Assembly (NCBI GenBank): GCA_973895155.1
Contig: OZ316893.1
Location: forward strand, 16,398,645-16,462,644
Source of the DNA: Marsupella aquatica
Lineage: Eukaryota; Plantae; Marchantiophyta
Direction of reading: 5' to 3'
Length of the DNA: 64,000 nt
Every line of letters starts with the position of its first letter. The first letter of the stretch is position 1. A program made the position numbers and the translations under genes. Shown piece after piece: positions 1 to 40,663 of this stretch. Below the pieces are notes generated by a model, which ran no database searches, was not told where the DNA came from, and was given only the letters and a program-made list of their open reading frames with translations.

Positions 1-2448
1 ATCTCGCTTCGATCACATGAAAACTATATCACTCCCTGCAGCACGCCACGATTGGATCAACTTACGAGTTCAAGACTGTGATGCCTAACCAGGAATCACT
101 AGGCCGGTTAAATGGGAAAATGGAAGTATACCCTAGAAACAACTTAGTATAGTTACAAGAATGAGGAAAATATAAACAATTAAGGGTGACTATGGAACCC
201 GGGCCCAGGCCGGAAGTAAGGACGCCGGGGGAGAGAATACGATTAGGGTTAGGGTGCACTAAGTGTCGGCGGCTAGGGGTAACCAACGGTAGGAAATACC
301 ATAGGAGGAGAGGGGTAAGGACAGCTCGCGAGGAATGGTGGCTCATTTGCAAGCACGAACTGGGCAGACGACTACAGGAGGCCAACTACTATCAGCTGCT
401 TAGACAAACACTCTGGGCGGGAGCAGATACCAATGAACGACTCAAGGAGGGTATGAGCAACATCAATCAAGCGACACATTTTTGGGGATGCCTGTTTGAA
501 CGGGCAACAGAGTACATTGGGACTTACGAGGACGAAGAATCGGAGAGAGCAGCTCGAGAATGGCAGGAGCTAGCTCGACTGTGGGAGCTGCAGAAATCTG
601 CCTTCTTAGGAGGAGAATTCATCAAGACCGAGTTCTTGTGGACTCCTACTGCCAATCAGCTTGATGACCTTTTGTTTTGCGAAAACAGGATCGTCGGCAT
701 TCGGGAAGCCATCAACCGCTGCAACGACATACACTGGGAGTTGAAGGGTAGCACGGAGGGGTGGACAAAGGCAACCGTGCTAGGAGAAACATCCACGGCA
801 GCCGAGATGAAGAGGAAAGGAAACAACAATGAAGAGGCCACCCCGGCAAAAAGAACGAGGTCGGTGGCACCAAGGAAGCCAGCAGAGCAGGGAAGCAGGA
901 GGCAAGCGGAAGCCGAAGAGGAGGAGGTTGATCCCATCAATGCCATTCCAACAAAGGATGACACCTGGAAAGGCTGGGCGACGACCCTACCAGAAGAGGT
1001 GCAACTACATTTTGCACGGGAGGAGGATGCATGCTTTACGGCCATGCAGACCAAGAAGTACCAGGGCTTCATGGCCGGATCCGGCTTGGAAGCCTTCGTA
1101 AAATTACCATGACTCAAGCCGGAGGTGCCGGATTCAGACTTATTAGAATTCATGGGAGCCGAGACCAATTCCACAAGGGTGTATGGGAAGGATTTCTATC
1201 TCACTCCTCGGGTGATTGCCGAAGTGTTTGGCTTGCCGATGGGCAATAAGACCAAGGTAGAGACCAGGAAGACCTTGCCAGACAAGGAGTTCCGGTTGTT
1301 TCCAGGGCCATCAACGAAGAATGGCTTCTTTCGGAACACCTGCACCAACCCGCACATCGGAGAGATGATCGATTTCTTGCGGGTGACCATGCATTGCAAC
1401 TTGCCAAGGGCAGAGATCGGCAAGGCACAAGTCTACCTGGCAGAGAGGCCAGACCCAAGCCGGGACTACAACGGGTACCTCCTCAACCAACTAAAGAAGA
1501 TCTTGAAGGAGGAACAGCTGGTGATCGGCATGGGAAGCGTGTCCTGTGGTGCGTCCCATGGCTCTCTAAACCCCAGAAACCCCCCTTCTCAAGCCGATTC
1601 CCGCAGGTTTCGCGCTTGGCGAGGCCGTTTTCGCGGCTTAGTGGCATGGGACGCTGCTAACCTCCTTCTACTACTACTATTAACATTTTACACACATATA
1701 CTGGACAGATCCTTCATCGGGTCATGAGATACGTAGCCGGCCTAATCTAGGCCTTCCCTTGTCTTCCCCTCCTTCTTGTTAGGTATATTTGGATTCCGCC
1801 GCTGAAATGATCCCCAATAGGCTTGGTTAAGCCGCTAAGACCTCTCTCAGCTCGACACATCCAACTCTCACTCCCTTGCTTACTTTCCTTCATCTATTAG
1901 TTGATGTGGGCACTCTTCACACAAGTTAATGCGACACACAAATAGCAAAATGACTCCTTCTGACTGAGTCATACCATGCACTTGCCATACAAACAGTACA
2001 TCTCATACACAAGCTCTGCGAACTAAGCCGTGAGGCCAACTCTATTCAGCTCTTAGGCATGAGGAAACATGAATATACACAAGGGTCACTGTATGACTAA
2101 CCGAGAGCTTCTCTTACTACTTGATCCCAGCCCGGCTGGTGCAACTAAAAACTTGCTAAAGAAGAGGCCCTGAGCTCCCCGCTGCCTAGGGACTTATCCT
2201 GGTAGTGGATCTGCCTAATTCTTTGCAGCGTAAGCCTAATCTACCTAACTGAATCTACCTAAGTACAGCGAGGCAGGAGTACAAGTGTTGCTCTTACCAG
2301 TGGAACCGCAATCCCACTAAGCTAAGTGTTAGGGCCGCCTCCTGATCCTGATCCTAATCCTAACCTTAGAGATCTGAGCCCGCCCTGCCCACTCACGCCT
2401 CCTCCCTCCACGTCCGCCCTCCTTGAAAGGAGCGGCCCTCCACCACCA

Positions 2449-5400
2449 TCATGGCAGCGGTGTCTGTTCCTCAGTGGACGCCCCCAACGCTTCCTCCTCA
2501 GCCACTGCCGTAGGTTCGTTCTCTGACAGATTACCTGCCCTTGATTGAGTCAACTCTCCATCGGCCTGACTGGGTCCACCCCCGGCATTGGCATCGGCAT
2601 CGGCATTGGCATCGGCATTGGCTTCAACATCAGCCTCGGCTATGGCCTCAGCCTCGGCTATGGCCTCAGCCTCGGCTATGGCCTCAGCCTCGGCTATGGC
2701 CTCAGCCTCGGCTACGGCCTCAGCCTCGGCTATGGCCTCCCCTGCACACTCAAGTGGCGGATTGGGTACCTCGGCTTCATTACCGAGTATCCTGGCCTCG
2801 GCTTTATCATCCCCTTCTTCTAGGGTAGTTGGATCCTCCACCGTAACCCTGCCTGAGGTCGGTGCTGGGTTTACATCCTTGGTCACCACGGCCTGTGGAG
2901 CCGTATTACTCCTTGACCCTGACGGTTTCCGCTTCTTCTTCTTTTCTGGTTCGGCAGCTGGCCCCTTCCCCTTCCCACTTACTTTCGGCACTGGTGCAAA
3001 TGGCACGGCTTGTCCTTCGGCCAGTACCACTCCTGGTAACTTAGTGGCCTCAATTTGAGTTGGCCCTGATGAAGCCAAGCACTTAAATACTGTAGCTTGT
3101 TTCTTCAGCCGCTCCGTTTGGTTGTCGGCTCGTCGTTGTAAGTTCTCTAGCTTCCGCGTGCTTTCCTCCAACTCTTCCTGCACTTCGTCCAGGTCCTTGT
3201 GGGCCTCCTCCAGCTCCTTCTGGGCTTCCTCCAATTCCTTTTTAAACGCAGCTCTCTCCTCTCGGGTCGCTCTTAACTCCTTGTCGAGCTCTGCAATGAT
3301 GACAGACTCCATCTGGTTCATCTTGGCGTAAGTCTGATCGAGCATATTGTCCTTCTCACGCAGGTCGGCCTTGAAGCTGGCCGTCAGGGACGCAAGCTCC
3401 TGCTGCAGCGCAATGATCCCTTGATAGGATTTCCCTAACTCGGCCTCCTTCTGCTCAAGGGCTCTGCGGATAACCTCGAGCTCCCCCTTCAATGCCCTTT
3501 CCCTTCTCTGGGTCTCCGCCATGGCCCGGTTGTTGGTTGTTATGTGGGCCTCTTCTGCATCCCTCAGCTCTCGCTTCCACTTCTCCCGCTCCTTGATCGC
3601 ATCGGCCAACTCTCCTTGGGTTCGAGTCAGTTTATTCTCGATAATCCGATTATCAGACTGTGCGATATCCAATTGATCCTGCATGATATTTAGCTCATGC
3701 CGCTTAATCCGCAGCTCATCTTGGGCTTTCTTGGCCGCCCTCAGGTCTTTGATTTCGGCTTCCCTTGCCCTAAGCCGACGGATGACCTCGTCCTTCTTGC
3801 TTCTTTCCAAAGCCACCGCTTCTTCTAATTGGCGCTTCTCCAACATCTCCCTCTAAAAAAAGGGTCCTTGCTCCAACTCCTCCCCAAAGATGCTGAGCGC
3901 CAGCTCTCCACACATTTCCCCGTACTCCATGGCTCTATTTTTAGCATAGGTGGAGGAAGTAGAAGTCATCGGCATCATCCACCGCGGCTTGTGTTCCCAA
4001 GCCGCCTTGCGGATCTCTTCTATTGTGGCTGGAGGGATGCTTCGTTTTTTTGCAAGCTGCCTGATGTCCTCTGGCCATTCTCCTCCTGGTAAATCCTTTT
4101 CTCTAGCCAGGGCTGCCTCCTCTTCCTCCCTGATTCGCTCCTGAAATTCCTGTGCCGTCTGTTTTATGCCGTCAAAGCTCGGGGGAGCGACATCTGGTGG
4201 GGGAGACTCGGGGCTGCTCTGCTGGCTCGGGTCTCCTCGAAATACTCTTGGGAGCGTGGGGATGAACCGGCCACAGGTCCTTACTCCTGGAACATGATGA
4301 TCCGACCCGTAGCCGGAGTCATCATTGCTGTAGTCCTCTACCGCCTCCTCCTCGGCTTGGACTACCGGCTTCTCCCGCTGTTCTCCTGGTTTTGTCGTGA
4401 ACACGGCTTCACCTCTCACCGGTCTTGGTTCCTCCTCCGGCTTCCGTGTTGATCTCTTGTTCTCCTTGTCGCGGCCGGGAGCTACGGCCTCCTTCTCCTC
4501 GGCTTCGGGACTTGAGACTCCTACATACATCCGGACTCCCGGCTCGTGTTCCGGCCTCCTTCTCTCCTTGACCCCAGTAAAGGGGTTTTCCCTTGTAAGC
4601 CGGCTTAGGCCTACCTCAGGAGCAGTGTCCTGCATTGTTGCCGTTGCCGTTCTCTTTTCCTTCTCCAGCAATTTCAGTAGATTCTGCATGTCTGGTTGCT
4701 GCATCGGCAAGTCCTCCGTCCTTGGCCTAAACACCTGCTCGATTGTAGGACTGTTGGGCGGGTTGGGTTTCTCCGTTGCCGGCCTCTGTTCCGGAACCTC
4801 CTCTGGTGCCCTTGCCTATAGGGGAAGTACCGGGGCAAAGGTCTTACTTCGGGCATACCGGCATAGTAGCGGTACGTGATAGCCAAGCCGGGACACGCTT
4901 CCCTTGCCGATCACCAGCTGTTCCTCCTTCAAGATCTTCTTTAGTTGAGTGAGGAGGTAACCATTGTAGTCCCGGCTTGGGTCTGGCCTCTCTGCCAGAT
5001 AGACCTGTGCCTTGCCGATCTCTGGTCTCGGCCAGTTGCAATGCATGGTCACCCGCAAGAAATCGATCATCTCTCCTATATGCGGGTTGGTGCAGGTGTT
5101 TCGGAAGAAGCCATTCTTTGTTGAAGGCCCGGGAAACAACCGGAACTCCTTGTCTGGCAAAGTCTTCCTGGTATCTACCTTGGTCTTATTGCCCTTCGGC
5201 AAGCCAAACACTTCGGCAATCACCTGGGGAGTGAGATAGAAATCCTTCCCATACACCCTTGTGGAATTGGTCTCGGACTCCCATGATCCCACGAATTCTA
5301 GTAAGTCTGAATCCGGCACCTCCGGCTTTAGCCACGGTAACTTTACGAAGGCTTCCAAGCCGGATCCGGCCATGAAGCCCTGGTATTTCTGAGTCTGCAT

Positions 5401-6252
5401 AGCCGTAAAGCATGCATCCTCCTCCCGTGCAAAGTATAATTGCACTTCCTCGGGGAGAATCGCTGCCCAGCCTTTCCAGGTGTCATCTCTTGTTGGAATG
5501 GCATTGATGGGGTCGACCTCCTCCTCCTTGGCTTCTCTCTGCCTCCTGCTCTGCTGTTCTGCTGGCTTTTTTGGTGCCGCCGATCTCGTTCTTTTTGCCG
5601 GGGTGGCCTCTTTGTTGTTGTTCCCCTTCCTCTTCATCTCGGCTGCCGTGGATGTCTCTCCTAGCACGGTTGCCTTTGTCCACCCCTCCGTGCTACCCTT
5701 CAACTCCCAGTGTATGTCATTGCAGTGTTTGATGGCTTCGCAGATGCCGACGACTCTGTCTTCGCAAAACAGCAGGTCGTCTAGCTCGTTGCCAGTAGGC
5801 GTCCACAGGAATTCAGCCTTGATGAGTTCTCCTCCTAAGAAGGCAGCTTTCTGCAGCTCCCACAATCGGGCGAGCTCCTGCCATTCTCGAGCTGCTCTCT
5901 CCGATTCTTCGTCCTCGTAAGTCCCAATGTACTCAGTTGCCCGTTCGAACAGGCATCCCCAAAAATGTGCCGCTTGATTGACATTGCTCATACCCTTCTC
6001 GAGTTGATAGTCGGTATTTGTTCCCACCCTGAGCGCTTGCCTAAGCAGTTGACAGTAGTTGGCCGCCCGTAGTCGCCTGCCCAGTTCGTGCTTACAAATG
6101 AGCCACTATTCCTCGCGAGCGGTCCTTACCCCTCTCCTCCTCTGGTTCTCCCTCCCGTTGGTTACCCCTAGCTGCCGGCACTTAGCGTGCCCTAACCCTA
6201 ATCGTGTTCTCTCCCCTGGCGTCCTTACTTCCGGCCTCGGCTCGGGTTCCAT
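2449..6252 (-). pseudogene. LTR-borne ORF of copy 2: 1,267-aa single reading frame with only three in-frame TAG stops; unknown transposon accessory protein (globular domain + coiled coil)
   Basis: From ATG 6252 to stop 2449 the frame never shifts. The TAGs at 6106-6108, 4816-4818 and 3853-3855 correspond to TGG or CAG in other copies. Confidence 0.88.
2584..2740. repeat. Coding tandem repeats: GGCATTGGCATC-like units, then an 18-bp unit CAGCCTCGGCTATGGCCT x~6 (AEAEAI peptide repeat)
   Basis: Directly visible. The repeat is much shorter or absent in the other X copies. Confidence 0.9.
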
Positions 6253-9200
6253 AGTCACCCTTAATTGTTTATATTTTCCTTATTTATGTAACTATACTAA
6301 GGTGTTTCTAGGGTACACTTCCCTTTTCTCCTTAAACTAGCCCAGTGATTCCTGGCTAGGCATCACATGTCCCAGCTTGGTTATCACATGCCGTTGTTAT
6401 GCCGGTATGCCCAAAGCCAGATATTTGCCCCGGTACTGCCCCTGCAAGCAAGGGCACCAGAGGAAGTTCCAGAACTGAGGTCGGCAACAGAGAAATCAAA
6501 CCAGCCCGACAGTCCTACAATCGAGCAAGTGTTTAGGCCGAGGAAGGAGGACTTGCCGATGCAGCAACCAGGCATGTAGAATCTGCTGAAATTGCTTGAG
6601 AAGGAAAGAAGAACGGCAACGGCAACGGGGCCAGCACAAAATACTGCTTTCGAAGTTGGCCTTAGCCAACTTACCAGGGAAAACCCCTTTACCGGGGCCA
6701 AGGAGAGAAGGAGGCCGGAACACGAGCCGAGAGTCCGAATGTATGTAGGAGCTTCAAGTCCCGAAGCCGAGGAGAAGCAGCCCGAGGCCCCTGGTCACGA
6801 CAGGGAGAAGATGAGATCAACGTGGAAGCCGGAGGATCCAAAACCCGTGATCTGTGGGGTTGTGTTCATGGCAGGACCAAGAGAACAGAGGGGGAAACCG
6901 GGAGTCCAAGCAGTGGAGGAGGCGATGGAGGACTACAGCAATGATAACTCCGGCTATGGGTCGGATCATCATGTTCCAGGAATAAGGACCTGTGGCAGGT
7001 TCATCCCCACTCTTCCAAGAGTAATTTGAGGGGACCCCACCCAACAGAGCAGCCCCGAGTCCCCCCCCCACCAGATGTCGCTCCCCCGAGTTTTGACGGC
7101 ATAAGACAGACGGCACAGGAGTTTCAGGAACGACTCAGAGAGGAAGAGAAGGCAGCCCTGGCTAGGGAGAACGATTTACCAGGAGGAGATTGGCCAGAGG
7201 ACATCAGGCGGCTTGCCGAAAAAAGAAGCAACCCTCTTGCCACCATAGAAGAAATCCGCAAGGCGGCTTGGGAACAGAGGCCGAGGTGGTTGATGTCGAT
7301 GACTTCTTCTTACTCCACCTATGCTAAAGATAGAGCCATGGACTACGGAGAGATGTGTGGGGAACTTGTGCTCAGCATCTTTGAGGAGGAGTTGGAGCAG
7401 GGACCCTTTTTCTAGAGGGAGATATTGGAGAAGCACCAATTAGAAGAAGCGGTGGCTTTGGAGAGAAGCAAGAAAGACGAGGTCATCCGACGGCTTAGGG
7501 AGAGGGAAGCCAAGGTAAAAGACCTAAAGGCGTCCAAGAAAGCCCAAGATGAGCTACGGATTAAACGGCATGAGCTAAACATCATGCAGGGGCAGTTGGA
7601 TACCGCGCAGTCTGATAATCAGATTATCAAGGATAAATTGACTCAGAGCCAAGGAGAGTTGGCCGAGGCGGTCAAAGATAGGGAGAAGTGGAAGCGAGAG
7701 CTGAGAGAGGAGGCCCACATAGCAGCCAATAACCGTGCCATGGCAGAGACTCAGAGAAGGGAGAGGGCGTTGAAAGGGGAACTCGAGGATATCCGCGGAG
7801 CCCTTGAGCAGAAGGAGGCCGAGTTAGGGAAATCCTATCAGGCGATTATCGTGCTGCGGCAGGAGCTCGCATCCATGACGGCCAGCTTCAAGGCCGACCT
7901 CCGCGAGAAAGACAACCAGCTCGACCAGACTTATCCCAAGATGAATAAAATGGAGTCTGAGGTCATGGCGGAGCTCGACAAGGAGCTGAGAGCAACCTAG
8001 GAGGAGAGGGCTACCTTAAAGAAAGAGTTGGAGGAAGCCCAGGAGGAGCTGAAGGAGGCAAGGAAGGACTTGGATGAATTGCAGGAGAAGTTGGAGGAAA
8101 GCACGCGGAAGATGGAGAACTTACAGCGGCGGGCCGACAACCAAATGGAGCGGCTGAAGAAACAGGCCGCAGTATTTAAGTGTTTGGCTTTCTCAGGACC
8201 AACTCCAATTTGGGCAACCAAGTTACCTGGTGTAGTACTGGGCGAAGGAGAAGCTGAGACACTCGCACCGGTGCCGGAGGTAAGTGGCAAGGGGAAGGGG
8301 CCAGCTGCCAAACCAAAGAAGAAGAAGAAGCGGAAACCTTCTGGGTCAGGGAGTACTACGGCTCCTCGAGCCGTCGTGACCAAGGAGGTAAACCCAACAC
8401 CAACCTCCGGCATGGTCACGACAATGGATCCACCTGTCAAGGAAGGTGGGGATGGCAAGGCCGAGGCCGGGACAACTATTGATGAAGCCGTGGTAGCAAA
8501 CCCACCACTAGAGCCAACCGAGGAAACCATAGCCAGGGAAGCCGTGGCCGAGACTGATGCTGAAGCTGAAGGTGGACCCAATCAGGCCGATGAAGAGTTG
8601 ACTCGGTCCGGGGCAGGTAATCTGTCAGAGGAAGGACCGACGGCAGTGGCTGCGGGGGAAGCGTTGGGGGCGTCCATTGAGGATCCACCACCGGTGTCGT
8701 GACGATGCAAGGGCGCCATTCCTTTTAGGAAGGGTGGACGTGGAGGTAGGAGGCGTGAGTGGGCAGGGCGGGCTCGGATCTCCAAGTTTAGGCTGAGGAT
8801 CAGGACCAGGAGACAGCCCTGACACTTAGATTAGTGGGATTGTGGATCCACTGGTAGGAGCAACACTTGTACTCCTGCCTCGCTGTACATAGGTAGATTG
8901 CAGTTAGGTAGATTACAGGTAGGATAGATTAAGCTTATGCTGCTAAGAATTGGCGGATCCACTACCAGGATAAGTACCTGGGCAACTGGGAGTCCAAGGC
9001 CTCTTCTTTAGCAAGTTTTTAGTTGCACTAGCAGGGCTAGGATCAAGTAGTAAGAGAAGCTCTCGGTTAGTTATACAGTGACCCTTGTGTATTTTCATGT
9101 TTCCTCATGCCTAAGAGCTTAATAGAGATGGCCTCACAACTTAGTTCGCAGAACTTGTGTATGAGATGTACTGTTTGTATGGCAAGTGCATGGTATAACT

Positions 9201-12200
9201 CAGTCAGAAGGAGTCATTTTGCTATTTGTGTGTCGCATTAACTTGTGTGAAGAGTGCCCACATCAACTAATAGATGAAGGGAAGTAAGCAAGGGAGTGAG
9301 AGTTGGATGTGTCGAGCTGAGAGAGGTCTTAGCGGCTTAACCAAGCCAATTGGGGATCATTCCGGCGGCGAAATCCAAATATACCTAAAGAAAAGGAGGG
9401 GAATACAAGGGAAGGCCTAGATTAGGCCGGCTACGTATCTCATGACCCGATGAAGGATCTGTCCAGTATATGTGTGTAAAATGTTAATAGTAGTAGTAGA
9501 AGGAAGTTAGCAGCGTCCCATGCCGCTAAGCCGCGGAAACGGCCTCGCCGAGGACGAAACCTGCGAGTATCGGCCTGCATAGGGGGGTTTCTTGGGTTTG
9601 GGGATCCATGGGACGCACCACAAAGACCATGCTACAATTGCCAACTACAACAGTGAGTTATTTCGTATCACCTCACAGCTAGCAGTGTGCGATCACCCTG
9701 TAACAGACGAAGAACAAATCAAGAAGACGCTATCGACATTTCATGCTACAAACCTGGTACTCTCGGCACAATACCGTAACATGAACTTTACCAGATATTC
9801 TGAACTAATCGCTTACATGCTATTAGCAGAAAAGCACCAGATCTTGCTCCTTGAAAACGCCAAAACTTGACCACCCGGCAGTGCTGCACCACCAACCAAG
9901 ACCGAGACCCACTTCAACAGAGGAGAAGGCAGCACTAGAGGCAGAGGCATAAGTTTCTATGGCGGCAGAGGACGTTCGATAGGAAGAGGACGAGGCCGCT
10001 TCGACCGGGACATGGGCAGGAGCAACGACTGGCAAACATCACCGGGACGAACCTGGAACCGGAGAGGCAACAGAGGACAAGGCCGCAGCTTCGTTCGTGG
10101 CAGAGGTCGAGGCTACCTCACCTACAACAGAGATAAGTCTGACACTCCCACCTGTTTTAGATGTGGAACTAAAGGTCACACACAAAAAGATTGTCGTGCC
10201 CCTGCCCACTTAGTGAAGCTATATCAAGATAATTTGCATCAACTAGGCCTCGGACGTCACAGAAATTTCCTAGAGGCACCCAATGAAATTGACCAGTATG
10301 TAGTCTCTTCACCTTTACCTGAGGTTCATACTGTTAGTTTACAAAGCGACCTCCCTGCCGATCCTGCTCCCACACATTGTATTGTGGACAGCGGAACATC
10401 CCACTCGATACTACGCCACAAGAAATACTTCACCAAGATCATTCGATCCAATCGCCCTGTCACAACCATCACTGGACAGAATCACATTGAAGAAGGCAAT
10501 GGCCCAGCCATAGTCCAATTTCCTGGAGGAACAACCATCCGCATTCGATCAGCCATATACGCCCCTACAGCCACCCACAACTTGATAAGTTTTTGTGATA
10601 TACGGGACAACAACCTACACATCCATACCAGCAAACAAGATCGACAGGAGGTACTGCACATTTTGGCCAAAACTAATACATGACTCATAATCAAAGAGAC
10701 CCTGTTAAACCATCCTCCTGGCCTCTATATCACTCACATATATTCATATCACACAGAAAAGGCAACCAGAACACTCACAGACCAATGGCATCTCTGCCTT
10801 GGTCATCCGGGCACCACCATGTACCACAGAATCATTCAGGACATAGTCGGCATCCCACTTGGCGTACACCCGTCCCAAAGTAAACAAATCTGCACAGCAT
10901 GTTCCCAGGGTAAACTTGTCATCCGCCCCTCCATTGACAAAACCATATATTCTATACCCCAATTCCTTGAACGCCTACATGCCGATGTGTGCGGCCCTAT
11001 AGACCCCCCATCAGGCCCCTTATGATACTTCCTAGTACTCATTGATGCTTCCTCCAAATGGTCCCAAGTCTCCTTGCTATCAACTAGAAACCTTGTATTT
11101 TCTCGGATACTGTCCAACATACTGAAACTAAGATCACAATTTCCAGACCATCCAATCCGCACCCTGCGAGTCGATAATGCCGGTGAATTCACATCCCGAA
11201 CATTTGACACATACTGCGAAACTGCAGGGATCGATGTTCAGTATCCTGTCCCCCATGTACACTTCCAAAATGGAATAGCTGAGTCCTTAATCAAGCGACT
11301 GTAGATGATAGCCAGACCTTTACTGCTACAGACCAATTTACCTATATCAGCATGGGGTCATGCCATCAGACATGCCTCCTCCCTCATCAGATACAGACCA
11401 TCTGCCTATAACAAGTACACCCCACACCATTTATTGTTTGGGATCCCACCTGATGTCTCTCACCTTCGCATCTTCGGCTGCTTGGTACTGGTCCCCATTT
11501 TGGGACCCAAACGCACCAAGATGGGCCCACAGAGACAACAAGGGATATATGTAGGATTTGACTCACCATTGATTATTCGGTACTTAGAACCATCTACAGC
11601 AGATCTATTCAAGGCACGGTTCCTTGATTGTGATTTTATTGAAGATGATTTCCCCAAATTAATGGAGAACCAGACATCAAGTCCCCTTGTCCATACTCCG
11701 GAATTACAATGGCAGTTAAAACCCCCCTTCCAGCATGACCCACGGACAGTCCAAACCGAAGCAGAAGTACAGAAAATCCTCCACCTTCAACAAATGTTAG
11801 AGAAACTCCCAGACGCCTTTAATGATGCAGCAAATGTCACTCAGTCCTTAACACCAGCTGCCAATGCACCAGCACGAATCCAACCCACTCGACTAGCTAC
11901 CGAAGCCCCCCCTAAGGCAAAAAGGGGCAGACCACTAGGCTCAAAAGATAGCCAACCCAGGCAACGCCGGACCACAGCTGTTGTACCTACAGCCCTAAGA
12001 CCCACACCTGCACCCCCTGGACCTCAACCAACTTTAGTTAACGACAATGATGAAATAGCCATCCAATATATGCATTCAGGCAAAGTCTGGAAACGAGAAA
12101 CCACTACCATAGATGATGCATTTGCATATATGATATCAGAAGAGATAACCAATGATACTCCAGATCCATTGACAGTAACAGAATGTCAATCTCGTCCAGA

Positions 12201-15324: not shown

Positions 15325-16910
15325 TGTCATGCGCATACACATTGCTACACAACATACATCGCTTGTCACACACATTCAAACATATCCACAATGCAGCATC
15401 ACAAACACAAGAGAATGGAATACAAGTGGAACTCATGTCCACACATGTCCAAAACCCACAATCGCCCCCCTAGCTGGGAGTAAGGTCCCCTAACTCTAGC
15501 TAGCCATGAGTTCTACAAGGCTGATATACGCCTTTTTAAGTATGAAGATCAGGAGGCCGGGTGCAAGTGGTAGATTGCATGATTGAGGACTGTGATGCCT
15601 AGCCAGGAATCACCAGGCCATATTAGGAGTAAAATAGGAGGGTATACAATAAACCATTAGTATGAGGGCAAAAAACCAGGGAAAACCATAAACAATAAAC
15701 CATAAACCAGGGAAAACCATAAAGCATACATGGAACCGTAGCCGAGGCCAAAAGAGGAGTAACTATCACTAGGTCAAGATTAGGGTTAAGGCATGTAACC
15801 CTGGCGGCTACCGGTAATCGGTATCAAGACATACAGCGCTGGCCAGATGGAGGGGGGGTAAGGCAAGGCAACCCAGGAGTGACGGCTCATATTTGCACCT
15901 CGAGCAAGCAAAGTGCAAGCAGAAGCCAACGATTGTCAGCTGCGGAGGAGAACACAGGAGGGGCATAAGCAGCTACCAAGCAAAGCCAGAGAAGGGAATG
16001 AGCAACATCAATCACGCAACACATTTTTGGGGATGCCTGTTCGAACGGGCAAGTGAGTACGTTGGGACTTACAAAGAGGAAGAATCAAAAAGAGCAGCCC
16101 GCGAGCAATAGGGACTTGCTCGGCTGTGGGAACTGCAGAAGACAACCTTCTTAGGAGGAGAACTCATCAAGGTTGAATTCCTGTGGACACCTACTGTTGA
16201 TGAGCTTGACGACCTTCTAATTCGAGACAACAAAATTGTTGGCATTTGGCAAGCCATCAAAAACTGCAACGACAAACATTGGGACCTGAAAGGTTGCACG
16301 GTGGCGTGGACAAAAGCAACAGTGTTGGGAGAATCTTCAGGTGCCGCTGAAATGAAGAGGAAGATGGCCAACAATGAAGAAAACACACCGGCCAAGAGAA
16401 CAAGGTCGGCAGCATCAAGGAAGCCGGCCGAATAGGGAAGGTAGAGAGAGGAGGAAATCGAGGAACAAGAAGTCGACCCAGTCAATGCCGTCCCTACCCA
16501 AGACAACACCTGGAAGGGATGGGCGGCAATGATACCACTGGCAATGCAACTACATTTTGCACGAGAGGAGGATGCATGCTTTACAGCCATGCAAACCAAG
16601 AAGTACCAAGGCTTCATGGCCCGATCAGGCTTGGAGACCTTTGTAAGACTGCCGTGGCTGAGGAAGGAGGTGCCAGAATTGGACTTACTGGAATTCGTGG
16701 TATCGTGGGATTACCAATGTGTTTGGCTTGCTGATGGGCAACAAAGCTAAGGTAGAAACCTGGAAGAACTTGCCAAACAAGGAATTTAGATCGTTCCCTG
16801 GGCCGTCAACAAAGAATGGCTTCCTCCGGAGCACCTGCACCAACCCGCATATTGGAGAAATAATTGATTTCTTCCGGGTAACAATGCATTGCAACTGGCC
16901 GAGGCCGGAG

Positions 16911-17155
16911 CTCGGGGGGTTAACTAAGTGTATATTTTGGGGTACCACGTGCAATCCAAGAATATTCTCTATTTTCAATATTAATAAACTATTTTACTTT
17001 ATAAAGGGTATATATTAAAGAATATTCTATAAACATGAGTTTATAATACCTTCTTTTGCCTCCTACGCTTTTTAAAAATTTAATTAAAATCTGCCAAAAA
17101 TACCTATTTTGGATCGCACGTGGTTTCTAAGATTTTTGATAGTCAACCCCCCGAG
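16911..17155. mobile_element. 245-bp MITE / non-autonomous TIR element with 8-bp TSD
   Basis: TIRs CTCGGGGGGTTAACTA / TAGTCAACCCCCCGAG (15 of 16 match). TSD GGCCGGAG at 16903-16910 and 17156-17163. AT-rich core and subterminal inverted ACCACGTGCRATCCAA. Confidence 0.92.
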
Positions 17156-17310
17156 GGCCGGAGATCAGCAAGCCACAAGTGTACCTGGCAGAGAGGCCAG
17201 ACCCAAGCCGGGATTACAATGGGTACCTCCTCAACCAACTCAGAAAGATATTAAAGGAGGAATAGCAGGTGATTAGCCAAGGGAGCGTATCCCGGCTTGG
17301 TTATCACATG

Positions 17311-20063
17311 TGTCAAGCGATTAACATGGGTCTTAACACCAAAAACATCACTATTAGGTACCAAAACCATCTCCTTGTACCTGAGGATCACAAAGGGATG
17401 TTGTGAAGGCCGATAAAGACCAGTTTATGCCCTTAACACCAGACTATCATAGCAAGACTCTATCACACATCACCCAAGCTCAATCCTTAGGAACCAAGGT
17501 TGGGAATCAGATCCTGTGCTCATGATAGTTCTGGTGAGAAGGGGTCTTCATATCGGGCCCGTACACATAGGGCCTAGCGCTATGGTGCGCATATGTCTAT
17601 ACGTATGCTTACTATCATAGGTATATTTCTATTCCGCCGCCAGAATGTACCCATAAACCAATGACTCCTGACTGATTCCCGGCTTAGGGACTTCTAAGCC
17701 ATTGCCCCACCACTCTGCCATTCCACTCTCAGCAATCAGAGCTATGACAACCCTCACCCAACCCACTTCAATGCACCCGGTACACCTCTCAGTGGCGCTG
17801 CTAGTCCCATCATACACTCAGATTGCCTCACACACACACACATCCATGAGAGAAATGAGGCTTGAGAGGAAAACTCAATTAGATTCAAAGATGTGCACAA
17901 TAGTTCACTAAGAACACTTGATCCGAACAATAGGCCCGAAGGCTGTCTACTCCAGATTGCAACGTGCTTGCCCTGCAACCCCCGTGCTTGCCATGCAAGC
18001 TCAATCCTGAACCTGAGCCCGACTCACTCCAGATTGCGACGGTAGATTGGACTCAAACCAATCCCGTACTTGCCTTGCAAACTCAATCCTGAACTCAACC
18101 TCCTTCACTGCACTTCATTCTTGGGGGCACATACAAATCTCACACCTCCATTTCAGAATGGCAAGTTACACATGCACAGTTGACTTGACTTCAAAGCTGG
18201 TACCAGGCCTAACGGCAATCTACCCCAGATTGCAATGAGGCCTGGCCTCATGCTTGCCCTGCAAGCTCAGCTCTGGCCATAAATCCCTTAGTGCTCTCTA
18301 CCAGACAAAGGCTGGGACTCCCCATGGATCACGTAGCCTTGCCAGACTAAATTGTAAGTGCTCCTCCTGCTACCCCTCAATCAGTATCTCAGCCTCCCTA
18401 ATGTGCTCACCGCAAATCACATTGAAATCCTCCCCACATTTTGCAATCACCAACACATCACCTATCACCAAGGCTCTGTATCGGGGGAAAAGAACCCAAT
18501 TGTGTTGCCTACTAGAAAGAGCCACAATCCAGCTTGCAAACCTGGCCAACTGTTGCTGTGAAGCGTGGCTGATCACTCCCTGAGTAATAGCTCAACCAAG
18601 CTCTCCCCAACACATAGCTTCCAAGCCCAGCCTTCCTTGCACAGAGCTCCTCCCTGCTGCTCAGTCTACGTGAGATCACACAACTGATGTCCCCCCCCCC
18701 TTGCCTCTACCGGGGCTGCTCTATATACTCTCATACTGAGCCCAAATAAGTGGATACTACGCTGCTGGAGCCCCATCCCAGCCCTAACAGAGCCGTCACT
18801 ATCTCTAACTACTGAACCCTAACTCGCAACTTTATTTCTATCTTGAATTGGCTATGTACTTCGGATTTGGCCCTCCTCCATAGTTTTTGCGAGCTTGCGC
18901 CTCCTCTCCCAATTTCTCTATTCACCCATTTGCTGTGTGGATAGCAGCGTTGGAAGCGGCTTGAGCTCCTCTTTCCAACGAGGTCAATTATAGCCGATTT
19001 GGTCAAATACACAAAAAGTTGTGCCCCCATAACTGAGAGGGGGTATTCACTGTTGCGCTAACCCGAGTTACATATCTAACCCGAGTTTGGCTAACCTAGC
19101 TATCCTATCTAACCCGAGTAGAGCTAACCCGTGGTCTCGGGTTAGGCCGCTACCCGCTATCCGCTAATTCTAGGCTAAGCTGAGCCCGAACCCGAGCTTA
19201 TCTATGCTAACCCGAGCCCATGTTTAGGCTAACCCGAGTTCAATCTAACCCAAGCTCAATCTAACCCAAACCCGGGTTAAGCCTAAGCTGAAGCCGTGTT
19301 GACCTTAGCTAAGCTGAAGCTGTGTTGACCTGAGCTAAGCTGAAGCCGAGCTCACATAAGCTAAGCCGTGGCCGAGCTTAGGTTAACCCAAAACCGAAGC
19401 CGAATCCGCTAATTCCGACCACAAGTTAACCTGTCACACTAATCAGACAGTATCTTTCTTAACACACCTTTGTTTCCCAAGTGTTTTATATTGATTTTAC
19501 TCGCCTTGACCAGATCTTTCCAATGCTCTTTACAGATCCGGATTTGGTGACATATTGAAAGAGATATGGTCACCGACCACCTGCGACATAGCTTTTATTT
19601 CCCTAACTTTCTAAGACTAGACTATGAACCACTAACCCAAATAACAAAATGAAGCTACACACCCAAAGACATTCAGATTTTATCATGAGAACAATCACCA
19701 TACCACACAGCTTCATATTCAGCTATGGAGACTTGCTTCCTTGAATTACCATGCCTACCTCCGTACCGGCGTCTTGAAGGGCCTTCATGCTCCATCTTGC
19801 TTGTCAAGAAGATGGTGTGGTTGAAGAGCTGAATCCTCTCTTCCCCAGTTTCTCCTTTGTGGCCTTGACAGTGACTACCTCAACTGTGTCTGCCTTGGTT
19901 GTGCAGTCTTCAAGTTGAAATACCTTTATCCCTACTCTTAACGCCATGATTGCCCTTATTCTTGCCATCTTGCTAATTGTTATGCAATATCAATAGCTAC
20001 TCCTTGCATAGAGTAGCCTAGTTAATCAGATTATAGAATAATGACCATGTCATCGGCGTCACA
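17311..20063 (-). mobile_element. 2,753-bp solo LTR of a different family, no long ORF
   Basis: TGTCA...TCACA ends with TSD ACATG at 17306-17310 and 20064-20068. Removing it restores GYHMPLLC in the host X ORF. The strand is inferred only from a hairpin motif shared with X. Confidence 0.85.
19058..19410. repeat. Array of TAACCCGAG / AAGCTGAAGCCG-like short motifs inside the solo LTR
   Basis: More than 10 dispersed TAACCC(GAG) motifs, several of them inverted (CTCGGGTTA). Confidence 0.75.
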
Positions 20064-20904
20064 ACATGCCGTTGTTATGCCAGTATGCCCGAAGTCAAAT
20101 CTTTGCCCCGATCCTTCCCCTGCAGGCTATAGCACCAAAAGAGGAATCAGACCCGAGGCCGACAGCAAAGCAACCCGATCCGCCCGACAGCCCCACGATA
20201 GCTCAGGTCTTCCGACAGGTGCCGGAAGCTGGTCCGATGCAACAACCGGGCATGCAGAGCCTCTTGCACATACTGAACAAGGAGAAGGCGGCTCTAGCAC
20301 CAGAGGCAGCAGTAGTGGGCAGCAAAGAACCACTAGAGGAGAACCCATGGCCAGGGGTCGTAAACAGAAGCAGGCCGGAAAACAAGCCAGGGGTGCGGAT
20401 GTATGTAGGAGCCTCTAGTGAAGAATCAGAGGAGCTGGGACCCAGGGTTCCTAGTCCTGAAAAGGAGTGTGGAAGTCAGGAGCAGGAGCCGGAAGGGCAA
20501 GCTGCACGCATGTATAATCTTTGGCAGGAGGCCGGGTTTACGGCTAGTCCTAGAGAGGACAAGCAGGCACCAGGACACCCAAAGGCCGGGGAATACGTGG
20601 AGGAATACCACGAGGACTTGGGTTACGGGTCGGATCGCTCGGTACCAAGGGTGCGGACCTGCGGCTATTTTATCCCCAGACTACCAAGAGTGGTGCGTGG
20701 GGATCCACAACAGCAGGGGGCCCGGAGTCTCCCCCACTGGACGTACCTCCACCAATGTTTGACGGAAGACAATAGGCCGATCACGAGTTGCAGCAGCGAT
20801 TCAATGACCTGGAGGAAGCAACCCTGGCCAAGGAGAAGGACTTGCCAGGCGGTGGATGGCCGGAGGACATTCGGCAAATAGCAGGGACTCAAGCCGTGCC
20901 TTTG

Positions 20905-23900
20905 TGTGGTGCGTCCCATGGCTCCCTAAACCCAAGAAACCCCCCTGGACAAGCCGATTCCCGCAGGTTTTGCGGCTTAGCGGCATGGGATGCTGCTAAC
21001 TCTCTACTAACATTTTACACACATACACTGGACAGATCCTTCATCGGGTCATGAGATACGTAGTCGGCCTATTCTATGCCTTCCCTTGTCTTCCTCTTGT
21101 GGTCTTCCTTTAGGTATGTTTGGATTCCATAGCCGGAATGATCCCCAACTGGCTTGGGTAAGCCGGTAAGACCTCTCTCTCAGCTCGACACATCCAACTC
21201 TTACTACCTTGCTTACTCCCTTCTCTTGGTTGATGTGGGCAATCTTCAAACAAGTTAATGTGACACACAAATAGCAAAATGACTCCTTCTAACTGAGTTA
21301 TACCATGCTTTTGCCATACAAACAGTACTTCTCATACACAAGATCTGCAAACTAAGCCGTGAGGCCAACTCTATTCATCTCTTAGGCATGAGGAAACATG
21401 AATATACACAAGGGTCACAATATAACTAACCGAGAGCTTCTTTTACTACTTGATCCCAGCCCTGCTGGTGCACTAAAAGCTTGTTAAGGAAGAAGGCCCT
21501 GAACTCCCCGCTGCCCAGGTACTTATCCTGGCAGTGGATCCGCCTAATTCCTTGCAGCATAAGCCTAATCTATCCTATCTGTAATCTACCTATGTACAGC
21601 GAGGCAGGAGCACAAGTGTTGCTCTTACCAGTGGATCCGCAATCCCACTAATCTAAGTGTCAGGGCCGCCTCTTGGTCCTGATCCTAAGTCTGAACTTGG
21701 AGATCTGAGCCCGCCCTGCCCACTCACGCCTCCTCCCTCCATGTCCGCCCTCCTTAAAAGGAGCGGCCCTCCACCACCGTCATGGTAGCGGTGGCTGGTC
21801 TTCAATGGATGCCCCCAACGCTTCCTCCGCAGCCACTGCCGTAGGTCCGTCTTCAGACAGATTACCTGCCCCAGACCCAGTCAACTCACCCGCGGCCTGA
21901 CCAGGTCCACCCTCGGCTTCGGCCTCAGCATCGGCCACGGACTCTAATACGGCTATGGCCTCCCCGACATGCTCAAGTGGTGGATCCGGTACTCCGGGTT
22001 CATCATTGAGTATCTTGGCCTCAGCTTTGCCATCCCCGCCTTCTAGGGCAGTTGGATCCTCTGCCGTGACCCTGCTTGAGGTTGGTGTCGGGTTCTCCTC
22101 CGTGGTCACGACTGCTGGAGAAGCCGTGTTACTCCCTGACCCAGAAGGTTTCCGCTTCTTCTTCTTCCCTGGTTTGGCAACTGGTCCCTTCCCCTTGCCA
22201 CTTACCTCCGGCAGTGGTGCGAGTGTTGCGGCTTGTCCTTTGGCTAGTACTACTCCTGGCAACTTGGTTGCCCCAATTGGAGTTGGAACTGATGAAGCCA
22301 AGCACTTAAATACTGCGGCTTGTTTCTTTAGCCGCTCTGTTTGGTTGTCGGCCCGCCGCTGTAAGTTCTCCATCTTCCTCGTGCTTTCTTCCAACTCCAC
22401 AGGTGTTTTGTCCAGGTCCTTCCGCACCTACTCCAGCTCCTTTTGGGCTTTCTCTAACTCCTTTTGGGCTTCCTCCAATTCCTTCTTTAAGGTAGCCCTC
22501 TCCTCTTGGGTTGCTCTTAGCTCTTTGTCAAGCTTTGTTACGACCTCAGACTCCATTTTATTCATCTTGGCATAAGTCTGATCGAGCTGGTCATCTTTCT
22601 CACGCAGGTCGGCCTTGAAGCTGGCCGTTAGGGATGCAAGCTCCTGCTGCAGCACAATAATCCCTTGATAGGATTTCCCTAACTCGGCCTCCTTCTGCTC
22701 AAGGGCTCCGCGGATATCCTCGAGCTCCCCCTTCAACGCCCTCTCCCTCCTCTAGGTCTCCGCCATGGCCTGATTGTTGGTTGCTATGTGGGCCTCCTCT
22801 GCGTCCCTTAGTTCTCGCTTCCACTTCTCCCTTTCCTTGACCGCATTGGCCAACTCCCCTCGGGTCCGAGTCAGTTTATCCTTGATAATCTGATTATCAG
22901 ACTGAGCGGTATCCAGTTGCCCCTGCATGATGTTTAGCTCATGCCGCTTAATCCGCAGCTCATCTTGGGCTTTCTTGGCCGCCTTTAGGTCCTCTGCCTC
23001 GGCTACCTTCTCCCTAAGCCGTTGGATGACCTCGTCCTTCTTCCTTCTCTCCAAAGCCATCGCTTCTTCCAATCGGCGTTTCTCCAACATCTCCCTCTGG
23101 AAAAAGGGTCCCTGCTCCAACTCCTCCCCAAAGATGCTGAGCGCAAGTTCCCCAAACATCTCCCCGTACTCCATGGCTCTTTCTTTAGCATAGGTGGAGT
23201 GAGTAGAAGTCATCGACATCAACCACCGTGGCCTTTGTTCCCAAGCCGCCTTCCATATTTCTTCTATCGTGGCTGGAGGGCTGCCCCATCTTTCTGCAAG
23301 CCGCCGGATGTCCTCTGGCCATTCTCCCCCAGGTAAATCATTCTCCCTAGCTAGGGCTGCCTCCTCTTCTTCCCTGAGTCGCTCCTGAAATTCTTGTGCC
23401 GTCTATTTTATTCCGTCAAAGCTTGGGGGAGCGACATCTGGCGGGGGAGACTCGGGGCTATTCTGCTGGGTGGGGTCCCCTCAAACTACTCTTGCAAGCG
23501 TGGGGATGAAACGGCCACAGGTCCTTATTCCTGGGACATGATGGTCCGATCCGTAGCCAGAGTCATCATTGTCGTAGTCCTCCACCTCCTCCCCAACTTG
23601 GACTACTGACTCCTCTCGCTGCTCTCCTGGTCTTGCTGTGAACACGGCCTCCTGCCGATCATAGCTCACAGGTCCTAGTTCCTCCTCCGGCTTCCAGGCT
23701 ATCTTCTCCCTCTCTTTCCTGTGAACACGAGCCTTAGGCTGCCTTCCCTCAGCTTCGGGACTTGAGGCTCCTACATACATTCGAACCCCCGACTCATGTT
23801 CCGGCCTCCTTCTTTCCTTGGCTCCGGTAAAGGGGTTTTCCTTCATGAGTCGGCTTAGGCCGACCTCTAAAGTAGTGTCCTGTACCTGTGCCGTGGGCGT

Positions 23901-25692
23901 TGCCATTGCCATCCTCTTTTCCTTCTCCAGCAATTTCAGCAGATTCTGCATGCCTGGTTGCTGCATTGGCAAGTCTTCCCTCCTTGGCCTAAACACCTGC
24001 TCGATCGTCGGACTGTCGGGCTGGTTGGGCTTCTCTGGTGCCGGCCTCTATTCCTAAACCTCCTCTGGTGCCCTTGCCTGCAGGGGAAGTACCGGGGCAA
24101 AGATCTGACTTCGGGCATACCGGCACAACAGCGACATGTGATAGCCAAGCCGGGACACGCTTCCCTTGCCGATCACCTACTATTCCTCCTTCAAGATCTT
24201 CTTCAGTTGGGTGAGGAGGTACCCGTTGTAGTCCCGGCTTGGGTCTGGTCTCTCCGCCAGGTAGACCTGCGCCTTGCCAATCTCTGGCCTTGGCAAGTTG
24301 CAATGCATGGTTACCCGCAAGAAATCGATTATCTCTCCTATGTGCGGGTTGGTGCAGGTGTTCCGAAAGAAGCCATTCTTCGTTGATGGCCCTGGAAACG
24401 ACCGGAACTCCTTGTCTGGCAAGGTCTTCCTGGTATCTACTTTGGTCTTATTGCCCATCGGCAAGCCAAACACTTCGGCAATCACTCGGGGAGTGAGATA
24501 AAAATCCTTCCCATACACCCTTGTGGAATTGGTTTCGGGCTCCCAAGATCCCACAAATTCTATTAAGTCTGAATCCGGCACCTCCAGCTTCAGCCATGGT
24601 AATTTCACGAAGGCTTCCAAGCCGGATCCGGCCATGAAGCCTTGGTACTTCCGAGTCTGCATAGCTGTAAAGCATGCATCCTCTTCACGTGCAAAGTGTA
24701 ATTGCACTTCCTCGGGGAGGCTCGCCGCCTAGCCTTTCCAGGTGTCATCCCTTGTTGGAACGACATTGATGGGGTTGACCTCCTCTTCTTTGACTTCTTC
24801 TTGCCTCCTGCTCCCTTGCTCGGCTGGCTTCCTTGGTGCCGCCGACCTCGTTCTCTTTGCAGGGGTGGTCTCTTTGTTGTTGTTCCCTTTCCTCTTCATA
24901 GCTGCTGCCGTGGATGTTTCTTTGAGGATGGTTGCCTTTGTCCACCCCTCCGTGCTACCCTTCAACTCCCAGTGTATGTCGCTGCAGCGGTTGATGGCTT
25001 CCCGGATGCCGACTATTCTGTTCTCGCAAAACAAAAGGTCATCTAGCTCGTCGCCAGTAGGTGTCCACAGGAATTCAGCCGTGATGAGTTCTCCTCCTAA
25101 GAAGGCAGACTTCTGCAGCTCCCACAGTCAAGCGAGGTCCTGTTGTTCTTGAGCTGCTCTTTCCAATTCTTCATCCTCGTAGGTCCCAATGTACTCAGTT
25201 GCTCATTCTAACAGGCATCCCCAAAAATGAGCAGCTTGATTGACGTTGCTCATACCCTTCTTTGAATTGATAGTCGGTATCTGCTCCCACCCCAAGTGCT
25301 TGCCTAAGCATTTGATAGTAGTTGGCTTCATGTAGTCGTCTGCTTAGTTCGTGCTTGCAAATGAGCCACCATTCCTTGCGATCGGTCCTTACCCCCCTTG
25401 CCGCCATTAGTTACCCATAGCCGCCGGTACTTAGCGTTACCCATTAGTTACCCATTAGTTACCCATTAGTTCCTTCCCATTAGTTACCCATAGCCGCCGG
25501 TACTTAGCGTGCCCTAACCCTAATCGTGTTCCCTCCCCCGATGTCCTTACTTCCGGCCTTGGCTTGGGTTCCATAGTTACCTTTAATTGTTTATATTTTC
25601 CTTGTTTTTGGTACTATACTAATGTGTTTCCAGGGTACACTCTTGATTTTTACCATTTAAACTGGCCTAGTGATTCTTGGCTAGGCATCACA
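20905..25692 (-). mobile_element. Family X giant solo LTR copy 3 (4,788 bp), antisense inside the old X copy
   Basis: TGTGGTGC at 20905 and GCATCACA ending at 25692. TSD CTTTG at 20900-20904 and 25693-25697. Confidence 0.95.
21780..25574 (-). pseudogene. LTR-borne ORF of copy 3, multiple stops
   Basis: Collinear ORF-track pieces 24729-25034, 24180-24707, 23481-23996, 22752-23222, 22428-22736 and 21780-22427. Confidence 0.85.
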
Positions 25693-26134
25693 CTTTGCCC
25701 ACGGTTGAGGAGATATGAAGGGCGGCTTGGAAAGTAAGGCCACGTTGGGAGATGCCGACATCTCCTAACCACTCCACCTATGCACATTCCAGAGCCTTGG
25801 AGTATGGGAGGATGTGCGGGCTACTCGCCTTCAACATCTTTGGGGTAGAATTGGAGACAGGGCCTTTCGTCCATAAGGAGATGTTGGAGAAAAGCCGATT
25901 GGAGGACGCACTGGCTTTGGAGAGGATGAAGAAGGAGGAAGTCATCCGGCGGCTAAGGGAGAAGGAAGCCGAGGCCGAAGAGTTAAAGGTGGCCAAGCAG
26001 GCCTAAGACGAGCTACAAGTTAGGAAGCATGAAATAAGTATCATGCAGGGGAAACTAGCCCAGACTCAGGAAGACTTGGCTGAAACCCTCAAGGAGAAGG
26101 AGAAGTGGAAGCAAGAGCTTAAGAAGGCAGAGGC

Positions 26135-35800: not shown

Positions 35801-36014
35801 GAAGGACGAGGTCATCCGGCGGCTTAGGGAGATGGAAGCCGAGGTGGAAGACATGCAGGCGGCCAAGAAAGCCCAAGATGAGTTGCGGATTAAGCGGCAT
35901 GAACTAAACATCATGCAAGGACAATTGGATGCCGCTCAGTCTGGCAATCAGATTATCAAAGATAAACTGACTCGGACCCAGGGAGAGTTGGCCGGCGCGG
36001 TCAAGGACAGGGAA

Positions 36015-39000: not shown

Positions 39001-40663
39001 GGCAAGTCTTCCTTCTTTGGCCTGAACACCTGCTCGATTGTAGGACTGTCAGGTGGTTGAGGCTTCTCTGCTACCGGCCTCGGTGCTGGAGCTTCCTCGG
39101 GTGCCCTTACCTGCAGGGGAAGTACTGGGGCAAAGGTCTGACCTCTGGCATACCGGCACAATAGCGGCATGTGATAGCCAAGCCGCGACACGCTCCCCAT
39201 GCCGATTACCTGCTGCTCCTCCTTTAAGATCTTCTTCAATTGGTTGAGGAGGTACCCGTTGTAGTCCCAGCTTGGGTCTGGCCTCTCTGCCAGATAGACC
39301 TGTGCCTTGCCGATCTCTGCCCTCGGCAAGTTACAATGCATGGTCACCCGCAAGAAGTCGATCATCTCTCCTATGTGCGGGTTGGTGCAGGTGTTCCGGA
39401 AGAAGCCATTCTTCGTTGATGGCCCGGGGAACGACCAGAACTCTTTGTCAGGCAAGGTCTTCCTAGTATCAACCTTGGTCTTATTGCCTATCGGCAAGCC
39501 AAACACTTCGGCAATCACCTTGGGAGTAAGATAGAAATCCTTCCCATATATCCTCGTGCAATTGGTCTCGGGTTCCCATGACCCCACAAATTCTGATAGG
39601 TCTGAATCCGGCACCTCCGGCTTCAGCCATGGTAATCTTACAAAGGCCTCTAAGCCGGATCCGGCCATGAAGCCTTGGTACTTCTTGGTCTGCATGGCCG
39701 TAAAACATGCATCCTCCTCCCGTGCAAAATGTAGTTGCACCTCCACTGGTAGGGTTGCCGCCCAGCCTTTCCAGGTGTCATCCCTGGTTGGAATGGCATT
39801 AATGGGATCGACCTCCTCCTCTTCGGCTTCTCTCTGCCTCCTACTCTGCTGCTCGGCTGGCTTCTTTGGTGCCGTCGACCTCATTCTTTTTGCCGGGGTG
39901 GCTTCATCGTTGACGGCTCCCTTCCTCTTCATCTCTGCTGCCGTGGAGGTTTCTCCTAGCACCGTTGCCTGGGTCCACCTTTCCGTGCTACCCTTCAATT
40001 CCCTGTGTATGTCATTGCAGTTCTTGATGGCCTCTCGAATGCCGATGATTTTGTCTTCGCAAAACAGAAGATCGTCAAGCTGATTGGAAGTAGGAGTCCA
40101 CAAGAACTCGGCCTTGATGAGTTCGCCTCCTAAGAAAGCCGTCTTCTGCAGCTCCCACAATCGAGCGAGCTCCTGTCGTTCTCGAGCTGCCATTTCTGAT
40201 TCTTCATCCTCGTAAGTCTTGATGTACTCAGTTGCCCGTTCAAACAGGCATCCCCAAAAAATGTGCCGCTTGATTGACGTTGCTCATACCCTCCTTAGGT
40301 CGATCGTTGGTATCTACTCTCTCCCCGAGTGCTTGCCTAAGCAGCTGACAGTAGTTGGCCTCCCGTAGTCGTCTGCCTAGTTCGTGCTCGCAAATGAGCC
40401 ACCATCTCTTGCAAGCGCTCCTTACCCCTCTCCTCTTCCGGTCCTTCCTTCCGTTGATCCTTCCTAGCCGCCGACGCTTAGCGCGCCCTAACCCTAATCG
40501 AGTTTTCACCCCCAACGTCCTTACCTCCGGCCTCGGCCCGGGTTCCATAGTCGCCCCTAATTGTTTATATTTTCCTTGTTTTGTCCCTATACTAAGGTGT
40601 TTCTAGGGTGCACTCCTGCTTTACCCACTTAACTGGCCGAGTGATTCTTGGCTAGGCATCACA
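36015..40663 (-). mobile_element. Family X giant solo LTR copy 5 (4,649 bp), antisense inside the 5' LTR
   Basis: TGTGGTGC at 36015 and GCATCACA ending at 40663. TSD GGGAA at 36010-36014 and 40664-40668. Confidence 0.95.
36933..40548 (-). pseudogene. LTR-borne ORF of copy 5 (~1,200 codons; one frameshift near 40255, one TAG at 38562)
   Basis: ORFs 38562-40193 (543 aa) and 36933-38495 (520 aa) are in the same frame. The N-terminal piece is 40240-40548. Confidence 0.88.

Follow-up and report, generated by a model that had tools for sequence, protein, structure and literature searches.

From our analysis of a 64,000-nucleotide stretch of the liverwort Marsupella aquatica (contig OZ316893.1, positions 16,398,645 to 16,462,644; hereafter the window, whose own coordinates are used below), a 4.8-kb unit that recurs in it is the whole long terminal repeat (LTR) of a Ty3/gypsy retrotransposon, with no shorter end repeat inside it. 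We are close to certain that this LTR holds a protein-coding gene that has been under selection. On balance, we favour the reading that the product of this accessory gene is likely a VANC/PMD-type regulator that binds DNA and counters silencing.

The 4.8-kb unit as a long terminal repeat

Comparing the window with itself brought out six close copies of the unit and one older copy. Listed with the parts of the full element to which two of them belong, they are:

1545..6367, minus strand: copy c2, a solo LTR of 4,823 bp with TG...CA ends, flanked by TGTCC at 1540-1544 and 6368-6372 and nested in copy c1
77..9622 (77-1544 and 6368-9622), plus strand: copy c1, a solo LTR split by c2; duplication AAGAC
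20905..25692, minus strand: copy c3, a solo LTR nested in c7; duplication CTTTG; 12 stops
33210..42592 (33210-36014 and 40664-42592), plus strand: copy c4, the full element's 5' LTR, interrupted by c5
36015..40663, minus strand: copy c5, a solo LTR with a single stop and one net frameshift; duplication GGGAA
59269..59450, plus strand: copy c6, which follows the purine tract and opens the 3' LTR; a further LTR element interrupts it at 59451
15591..26133, plus strand: copy c7, of an older subfamily, in pieces at 15591-17310, 20064-20904 and 25693-26133; 50-81% protein identity by piece
42597..42614, plus strand: primer-binding site (PBS), 4 nt past c4; the single match in the window at two mismatches or fewer
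42664..59280, plus strand: gag-PR-RT-RH-INT of the full element, with an internal region of ~6.07 kb excluding element B (described below)

The unit starts with TG and ends with CA, and each of the four solo copies that could be tested (c1, c2, c3 and c5) has its own 5-bp target-site duplication. Copy c4 ends at 42592 and is followed by TTTT, by a PBS that starts with TGG at 42597 and then by gag-like coding sequence, while c6 is preceded by integrase and a purine-rich tract in which 11 of 16 nucleotides are purines. A preliminary description of the stretch, made from the sequence alone, had given these ends, duplications and flanks as its reasons for calling the unit an LTR, and each of them stood up. 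Over its first 175 nt, c6 is identical to c4 at 169 positions and to the other four copies at 151-157; by this measure the two are each other's closest match, as expected of paired LTRs.

The same description had considered that the true LTR might be only a short terminal part of the unit. No repeat common to both ends of the unit was found in the three copies tested (100 shuffles each), and therefore no shorter LTR is hidden within it. The integrase frame passes through the purine tract and ends 12 nt inside the 3' LTR (59269-59280), leaving no 3' spacer. The full element measures ~15.5 kb, and since its interior is filled by gag-pol, there is no room there for another gene.

An assembly artefact was rejected because the copies are 83-88% identical in the open reading frame (ORF) and their duplications are separate. 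In public contigs, all 30 bins of the stretch were covered in four of four runs by many diverged records, although the best run possibly stems from the sample of the window itself, where depth does not equal copy number. In two runs, contigs pass directly from 1510-1516 to 6368, which corresponds to host copies without the c2 insert. None of seven matching runs was of RNA, which does not bear on expression. Among metagenome contigs, none of 74 pattern matches was confirmed, and an Rfam scan of the unit gave no match. As to their placement, three of the four solo copies (1545-6367, 20905-25692 and 36015-40663) have each inserted into the ORF of a further family member, and each is oriented opposite to the copy that hosts it; such self-nesting may reflect self-targeting, or recombination that removes nests in the same direction.

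The reading frame and the selection on it

Most of the unit is a single sense frame, for which c2 serves as the reference:

2449..6252, minus strand: LTR-resident frame, 1,267 codons from the first ATG, with TAG at codons 49, 479 and 800 and no frameshift; likely start Met88 at 5991
6268..6273, minus strand: the sole TATAAA of c2, at LTR position 95; putative promoter of the gene
1545..2448, minus strand: LTR sequence 3' of the gene, non-coding; contains a TGTA/T-rich cluster at about 1990-2080

This frame, running from 6252 to 2449, takes up 79% of the unit, or 73% when counted from Met88. The share that had been estimated at first (~80%) was thus accurate, as were the accounts of c2 (1,267 aa, no frameshift, three TAG stops) and of c5 (one stop and one frameshift, the latter as a net value). 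The account of the lesions needed correction. Across five copies, stops occur at 22 positions, not counting one further apparent stop that adjoins an indel. Nineteen of these are private to one copy, in line with the description of the lesions as mostly copy-specific; the TGG/CAG>TAG changes held to make up most of them amount to half (11 of 22, with 3 CGN>TGA and 8 of other classes), and stops common to two copies occur at three positions, where a single one had been named. No stop is found in more than two copies, and none is fixed across the five.

The ratio of non-synonymous to synonymous substitution (dN/dS, by a Nei-Gojobori script) was 0.23-0.30 in 10 of 10 copy pairs, which are not independent of one another. 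Instead of fixed stops and a ratio near 1, we thus find no fixed stop and purifying selection, which agrees well with the intact master ORF that had been supposed. By part, aa 256-480 have a dN/dS of 0.10-0.13 and aa 801-1065 one of 0.16-0.24, with higher values (0.54-0.71) for codons 1-80. When pooled, the gene's frame gives 0.25 and four other frames 0.99, 1.33, 0.92 and 1.38, while the antisense frame that shares third positions gives 0.34; as a caution in reading such values, the 3' non-coding part gives 0.49 to 1.07 across its six frames. CpG decay was rejected as the source of the low ratio, which stood at 0.23 after codons in CpG context were dropped. The gene was under frame-specific purifying selection. 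For the solo copies after insertion, private changes (190 synonymous, 103 non-synonymous) and shared changes (73 and 25) showed no clear difference (p 0.08).

Since codons 1-80 are weakly constrained, the real start is more likely to be Met88, which is kept in all five copies and in c7; the relative P0007 begins at the matching position. Starting from Met88, the predicted protein would likely have ~1,180 aa. Near the C-terminus, an 18-bp tandem array at 2583-2739 codes for repeats rich in Ala and Glu; c2 has an expanded version compared with the other copies.

The protein, its relatives and element B

Three parts of the protein can be told apart, given here with their positions in c2:

5641..5991, minus strand: N-terminal helical domain, aa 88-204, with four predicted helices and no fold match
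4813..5487, minus strand: most conserved domain, aa 256-480, with a predicted VANC/DUF1985-PMD-like fold
3058..3852, minus strand: predicted coiled coil, aa 801-1065 (265 aa), charged and proline-free

A KKKKRK motif follows at 1104. The heptad periodicity of the predicted coiled coil is only modest in a simple test, and Pfam gives only generic coiled-coil matches for the protein. An env-like role was rejected, as the maximum 19-residue hydropathy mean is 0.92 and there is no transmembrane segment. A full HMMER search of 1.84 billion proteins returned 20 relatives, mostly fragments, of which the named ones come only from gene models of the liverwort Calypogeia fissa (three proteins). Neither HMMER nor word-index protein searches, one of which returned three proteins, found a full-length relative, and a sequence search of the PDB with the protein found nothing.

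For the fold, we rely on an AlphaFold model of aa 245-478 made from 20 sequences. Foldseek gave no match at E 0.001 for this model or for that of the N-terminal domain, and re-alignment of Foldseek's 74 chains left one weak row. Compared in full against 48,161 solved chains, the model reached a Z of at least 5 with only one, 9lnk_A (VANC21 bound to DNA), at Z 5.7, root-mean-square deviation (rmsd) 5.0, 168 aligned residues and 11% identity over model residues 57-234, where according to the tool's warning a Z below 8 may reflect a common arrangement; the next chain had Z 3.5. The Atlas language-model leads were DUF1985 and PMD for the conserved domain (0.87-0.88), and Transposase_32 and ATHILA for the homolog in element B (0.90-0.91). 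We give weight to the VANC21 match because its alignment spans the domain and agrees with the separate language-model leads, and we consider it probable, from the model, that the conserved domain has a VANC/PMD-type fold. DUF1985 is the VANC domain and structurally resembles PMD (10.1101/2024.09.27.615353), coiled-coil pentamers have been modelled for VANC and Athila proteins (PMC13547354), and VANC binds tandem motifs in non-coding DNA (PMC5735166). With a domain of this type, the gene would be of a known kind, that of the VANC/DUF1985-PMD-Transposase_32/Athila accessory proteins; what is new is its position inside the LTR.

The best structural match, VANC21 (the DUF1985 protein of Arabidopsis VANDAL21, PDB 9lnk), resembles our protein in combining the domain with a long coiled coil and in being transposon-encoded; the PMD proteins MAIN/MAIL1 and the Ogre PMD ORFs belong to the closest known systems as well. 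The two differ in their carriers, a Mutator-type DNA transposon for VANC and an LTR here, where the protein has no Pfam match of this kind. They also differ in that VANC binds tandem motifs, whereas no motif array was found in the main LTR family. Such an array is found in a second unit:

43662..54267, minus strand: element B, with TG...CA ends and GTATT on both sides, inside gag; ~4.06 kb without the nested copia at 46185-52721

Element B holds one gene of ~810 codons, which belongs to the same domain family as the main unit's gene and is ~70% identical along its length to P0030, an intact protein of 808 aa. A profile built without B finds B at E 3e-6 and P0030 at E 2e-9, the latter with 31.6 bits against 3.4 bits for the best of 200 shuffles. 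One 9-nt motif has 13 matches in the window, of which all but one fall into two arrays on either side of the B gene (44577-44651 and 53998-54103), and the top 8-mer of the element occurs 8 times, a count reached by one of 200 null sets. The arrays appear to be placed much as VANC targets are, and by this analogy B is a better candidate than the main unit for VANC-like self-binding. Element B is likely the solo LTR of another family; its ends are less sure, since the GTATT duplication could be chance in the range searched and an 8-nt repeat lies nearby, and neither a PBS nor a purine tract links it with an element.

The window as a whole is a nest of plant retrotransposons, with copia and gypsy elements and a CACTA-like fragment recognized by eye. 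The copia inside B (46185-52721) is nearly intact, with the duplication CTTAA, one stop between gag and pol, a 1,090-aa pol and LTRs that carry an 18-bp tandem array. Copy c7 is interrupted at 17311-20063 by a 2.75-kb TG...CA insert with the duplication ACATG and no long ORF, likely the solo LTR of another family. The gypsy element that cuts c6 (59451-64000) has a truncated 5' LTR and an internal deletion, and its 3' LTR apparently starts at 62239 and runs out of the window. Elsewhere, 9871-13949 is a decayed copia gag-pol that looks Bianca-like, and 14763-15473 is a fragment that by eye resembles a CACTA transposase-associated region, with no Pfam match.

Origin, expression and possible role of the gene

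The full element looks Athila-like, with its 3' accessory gene apparently moved into the LTR. As in Athila, the order is gag-PR-RT-RH-INT and the duplication is 5 bp; neither a chromodomain nor a second or archaeal-type RNase H was found (Pfam scan and translations); and a sense accessory gene, of a related domain type by the Atlas lead and needing no transmembrane segment, lies downstream of int in the genomic RNA. The PBS may be one for tRNA-Asn; in the Athila lineage the PBS is for tRNA-Asp or tRNA-Asn. The duplications of Phygy, Selgy and TatI are 4 bp (PMC6317226 supplement 5). According to PMC6317226 and PMC11728184, Athila is a non-chromovirus OTA Ty3/gypsy lineage with a 3' extra ORF (ORF-1 PF03078 / Transposase_32 PF20167), 487 aa long in sunflower Athila 14 ORF(+) as against ~1,180 aa here, and the surveys covered place extra ORFs in the internal region. 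The Athila extra ORF, which is common but not universal, lies between int and the 3' LTR, whereas in our element there is no int-LTR spacer and the gene, encoded past the purine tract, belongs to the LTR itself and so is present at both ends and in solo LTRs.

Giant LTRs of non-chromovirus plant elements reach ~5 kb and have been described as large and non-coding (PMC6317226); the LTR described here is within this size range but is three quarters coding. We found no plant precedent for an LTR-resident gene in the literature searched, which dealt with LTR-internal genes and liverwort elements (REXdb/Repbase and most subscription papers fell outside it, and absence is unproven). Among retroviruses, MMTV sag and HIV nef are genes that reside in U3 or overlap it. 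They share with our gene a sense orientation in an LTR and duplication by reverse transcription, but they are several times shorter, encode unrelated proteins and belong to animal retroviruses.

We suggest a plausible course of events. In an Athila-like ancestor, the gene would have been located between int and the 3' LTR. If plus-strand priming then moved upstream of the gene, the gene would have become part of U3, and because U3 is copied to both element ends at each round of reverse transcription, it would have been copied to both ends as well. The gene would have its own promoter at the 5' edge of the LTR (TATAAA at 95, start at Met88), and its transcript would end at the polyadenylation region of the LTR; with both signals inside the LTR, the protein could be made from every young LTR, whether paired or solo. 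The protein may in turn oligomerise, bind the LTRs of its family and keep them transcribable in trans. We put the anti-silencing role, which is suggested by the modelled fold, a little short of an even chance, and we regard expression from solo LTRs as possible but doubtful.

The sequence outside the frame bears on this last point. A promoter and leader, which we would place in the first 376 nt of the LTR, would fit with TATAAA at LTR position 95-98 in all six copies examined and with the weak constraint on codons 1-80. The 900 nt past the stop codon are 90-94% identical between copies, far above synonymous sites, and the TGTA/T-rich cluster there could be a polyadenylation region. It is less likely that the gene sits in U3 without a promoter of its own and that only full elements express it, from their 3' LTR, through a spliced or internally started subgenomic RNA like that of Athila 3' genes or nef, with the solo copies silent. 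All four solo copies in the window are indeed broken, the start at the LTR edge is a predicted one, and barley Bagy2 is known to have spliced sense ORFs at its 3' side (PMC7264820); however, the promoter and leader features just described argue for a start within the LTR, and a simple pattern search over the first 400 nt of all six copies turned up no splice acceptor with a pyrimidine tract.

Similarly unlikely, in our view, is that the protein of the LTR-resident gene has another role, such as steering integration to its own LTRs, RNA export or particle assembly. The nesting of three of the four solo copies in other copies of the family would suit such a role, and so would the lack of a target-motif array in the main LTR; the functions of accessory ORFs in plant gypsy elements are unresolved in the literature (PMC7264820, PMC11963269). 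Self-nesting within one repeat-rich window can nevertheless be chance, and the only solved structure that the domain resembles is that of a sequence-specific anti-silencing factor bound to DNA. We can nearly dismiss the idea that the 4.8-kb unit is a separate non-autonomous element, or an internal region with short flanking LTRs, that lies beside gag-pol by chance: the 3' copy is short, its outer duplication is out of view and the internal region is split by element B, but a non-LTR unit would have had to land exactly before the PBS and exactly after int and the purine tract, c4 and c6 match each other best, and neither a repeat between the ends of the unit nor a second PBS is present.

Several points weigh against an LTR-resident gene for a VANC/PMD-type regulator, which we still prefer. 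The 3' LTR is interrupted after ~180 nt and its remainder lies beyond the window, so the paired LTRs are not seen at full length; with c6 cut at 59451 and the end of the 3' LTR outside, the outer duplication of the full element is not visible either. An intact open frame is found in none of the five full copies, the four solo copies of the window included. TATAAA and the TGTA cluster are consensus-type matches and as such putative signals, and no 7- or 8-mer was enriched in the non-coding parts of the LTR in the three copies tested. On the side of the protein, neither the window proteins nor the 20 relatives have a Pfam match to DUF1985, PMD, Transposase_32 or ATHILA; the 9lnk_A match is below the tool's safe level in Z, rmsd and identity, and comes from a model with a mean predicted local distance difference test (pLDDT) score of 68; and Atlas scores below 0.9 count as leads only.

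In surveys and pipelines for plant LTR retrotransposons, the search for extra genes is confined to the region between the LTRs, and solo LTRs count as non-coding debris. A selected gene of 1,200 codons in an LTR means that this assumption can fail, and some unnamed liverwort gene models would be accounted for by it. The VANC-like fold that we predict also makes the role of gypsy accessory ORFs testable, as that of a family-specific anti-silencing factor of a retrotransposon; in the literature covered, such factors have so far been shown only for DNA transposons.

The number of gene copies is tied to the number of LTRs, and long LTRs with short interiors readily form solo copies (PMC7497039). 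The preliminary description held that solo-LTR formation amplifies the gene, each solo LTR leaving a complete gene behind. Since two gene copies become one in this process, the gene is retained rather than amplified; one of the two copies is kept, as had been proposed, but none of the four solo copies in the window is still open. As a more speculative extension, to which we give less credence than to any step above, the LTR of several liverwort gypsy families could be an anti-silencing cassette composed of a promoter, a VANC-like gene, a polyadenylation signal and binding sites for the gene's own protein. Loss of gag-pol through recombination would then leave a working de-repressor, and young solo LTRs would keep the family active in trans. 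If this were true, the host's main route of element removal would not disarm the family.

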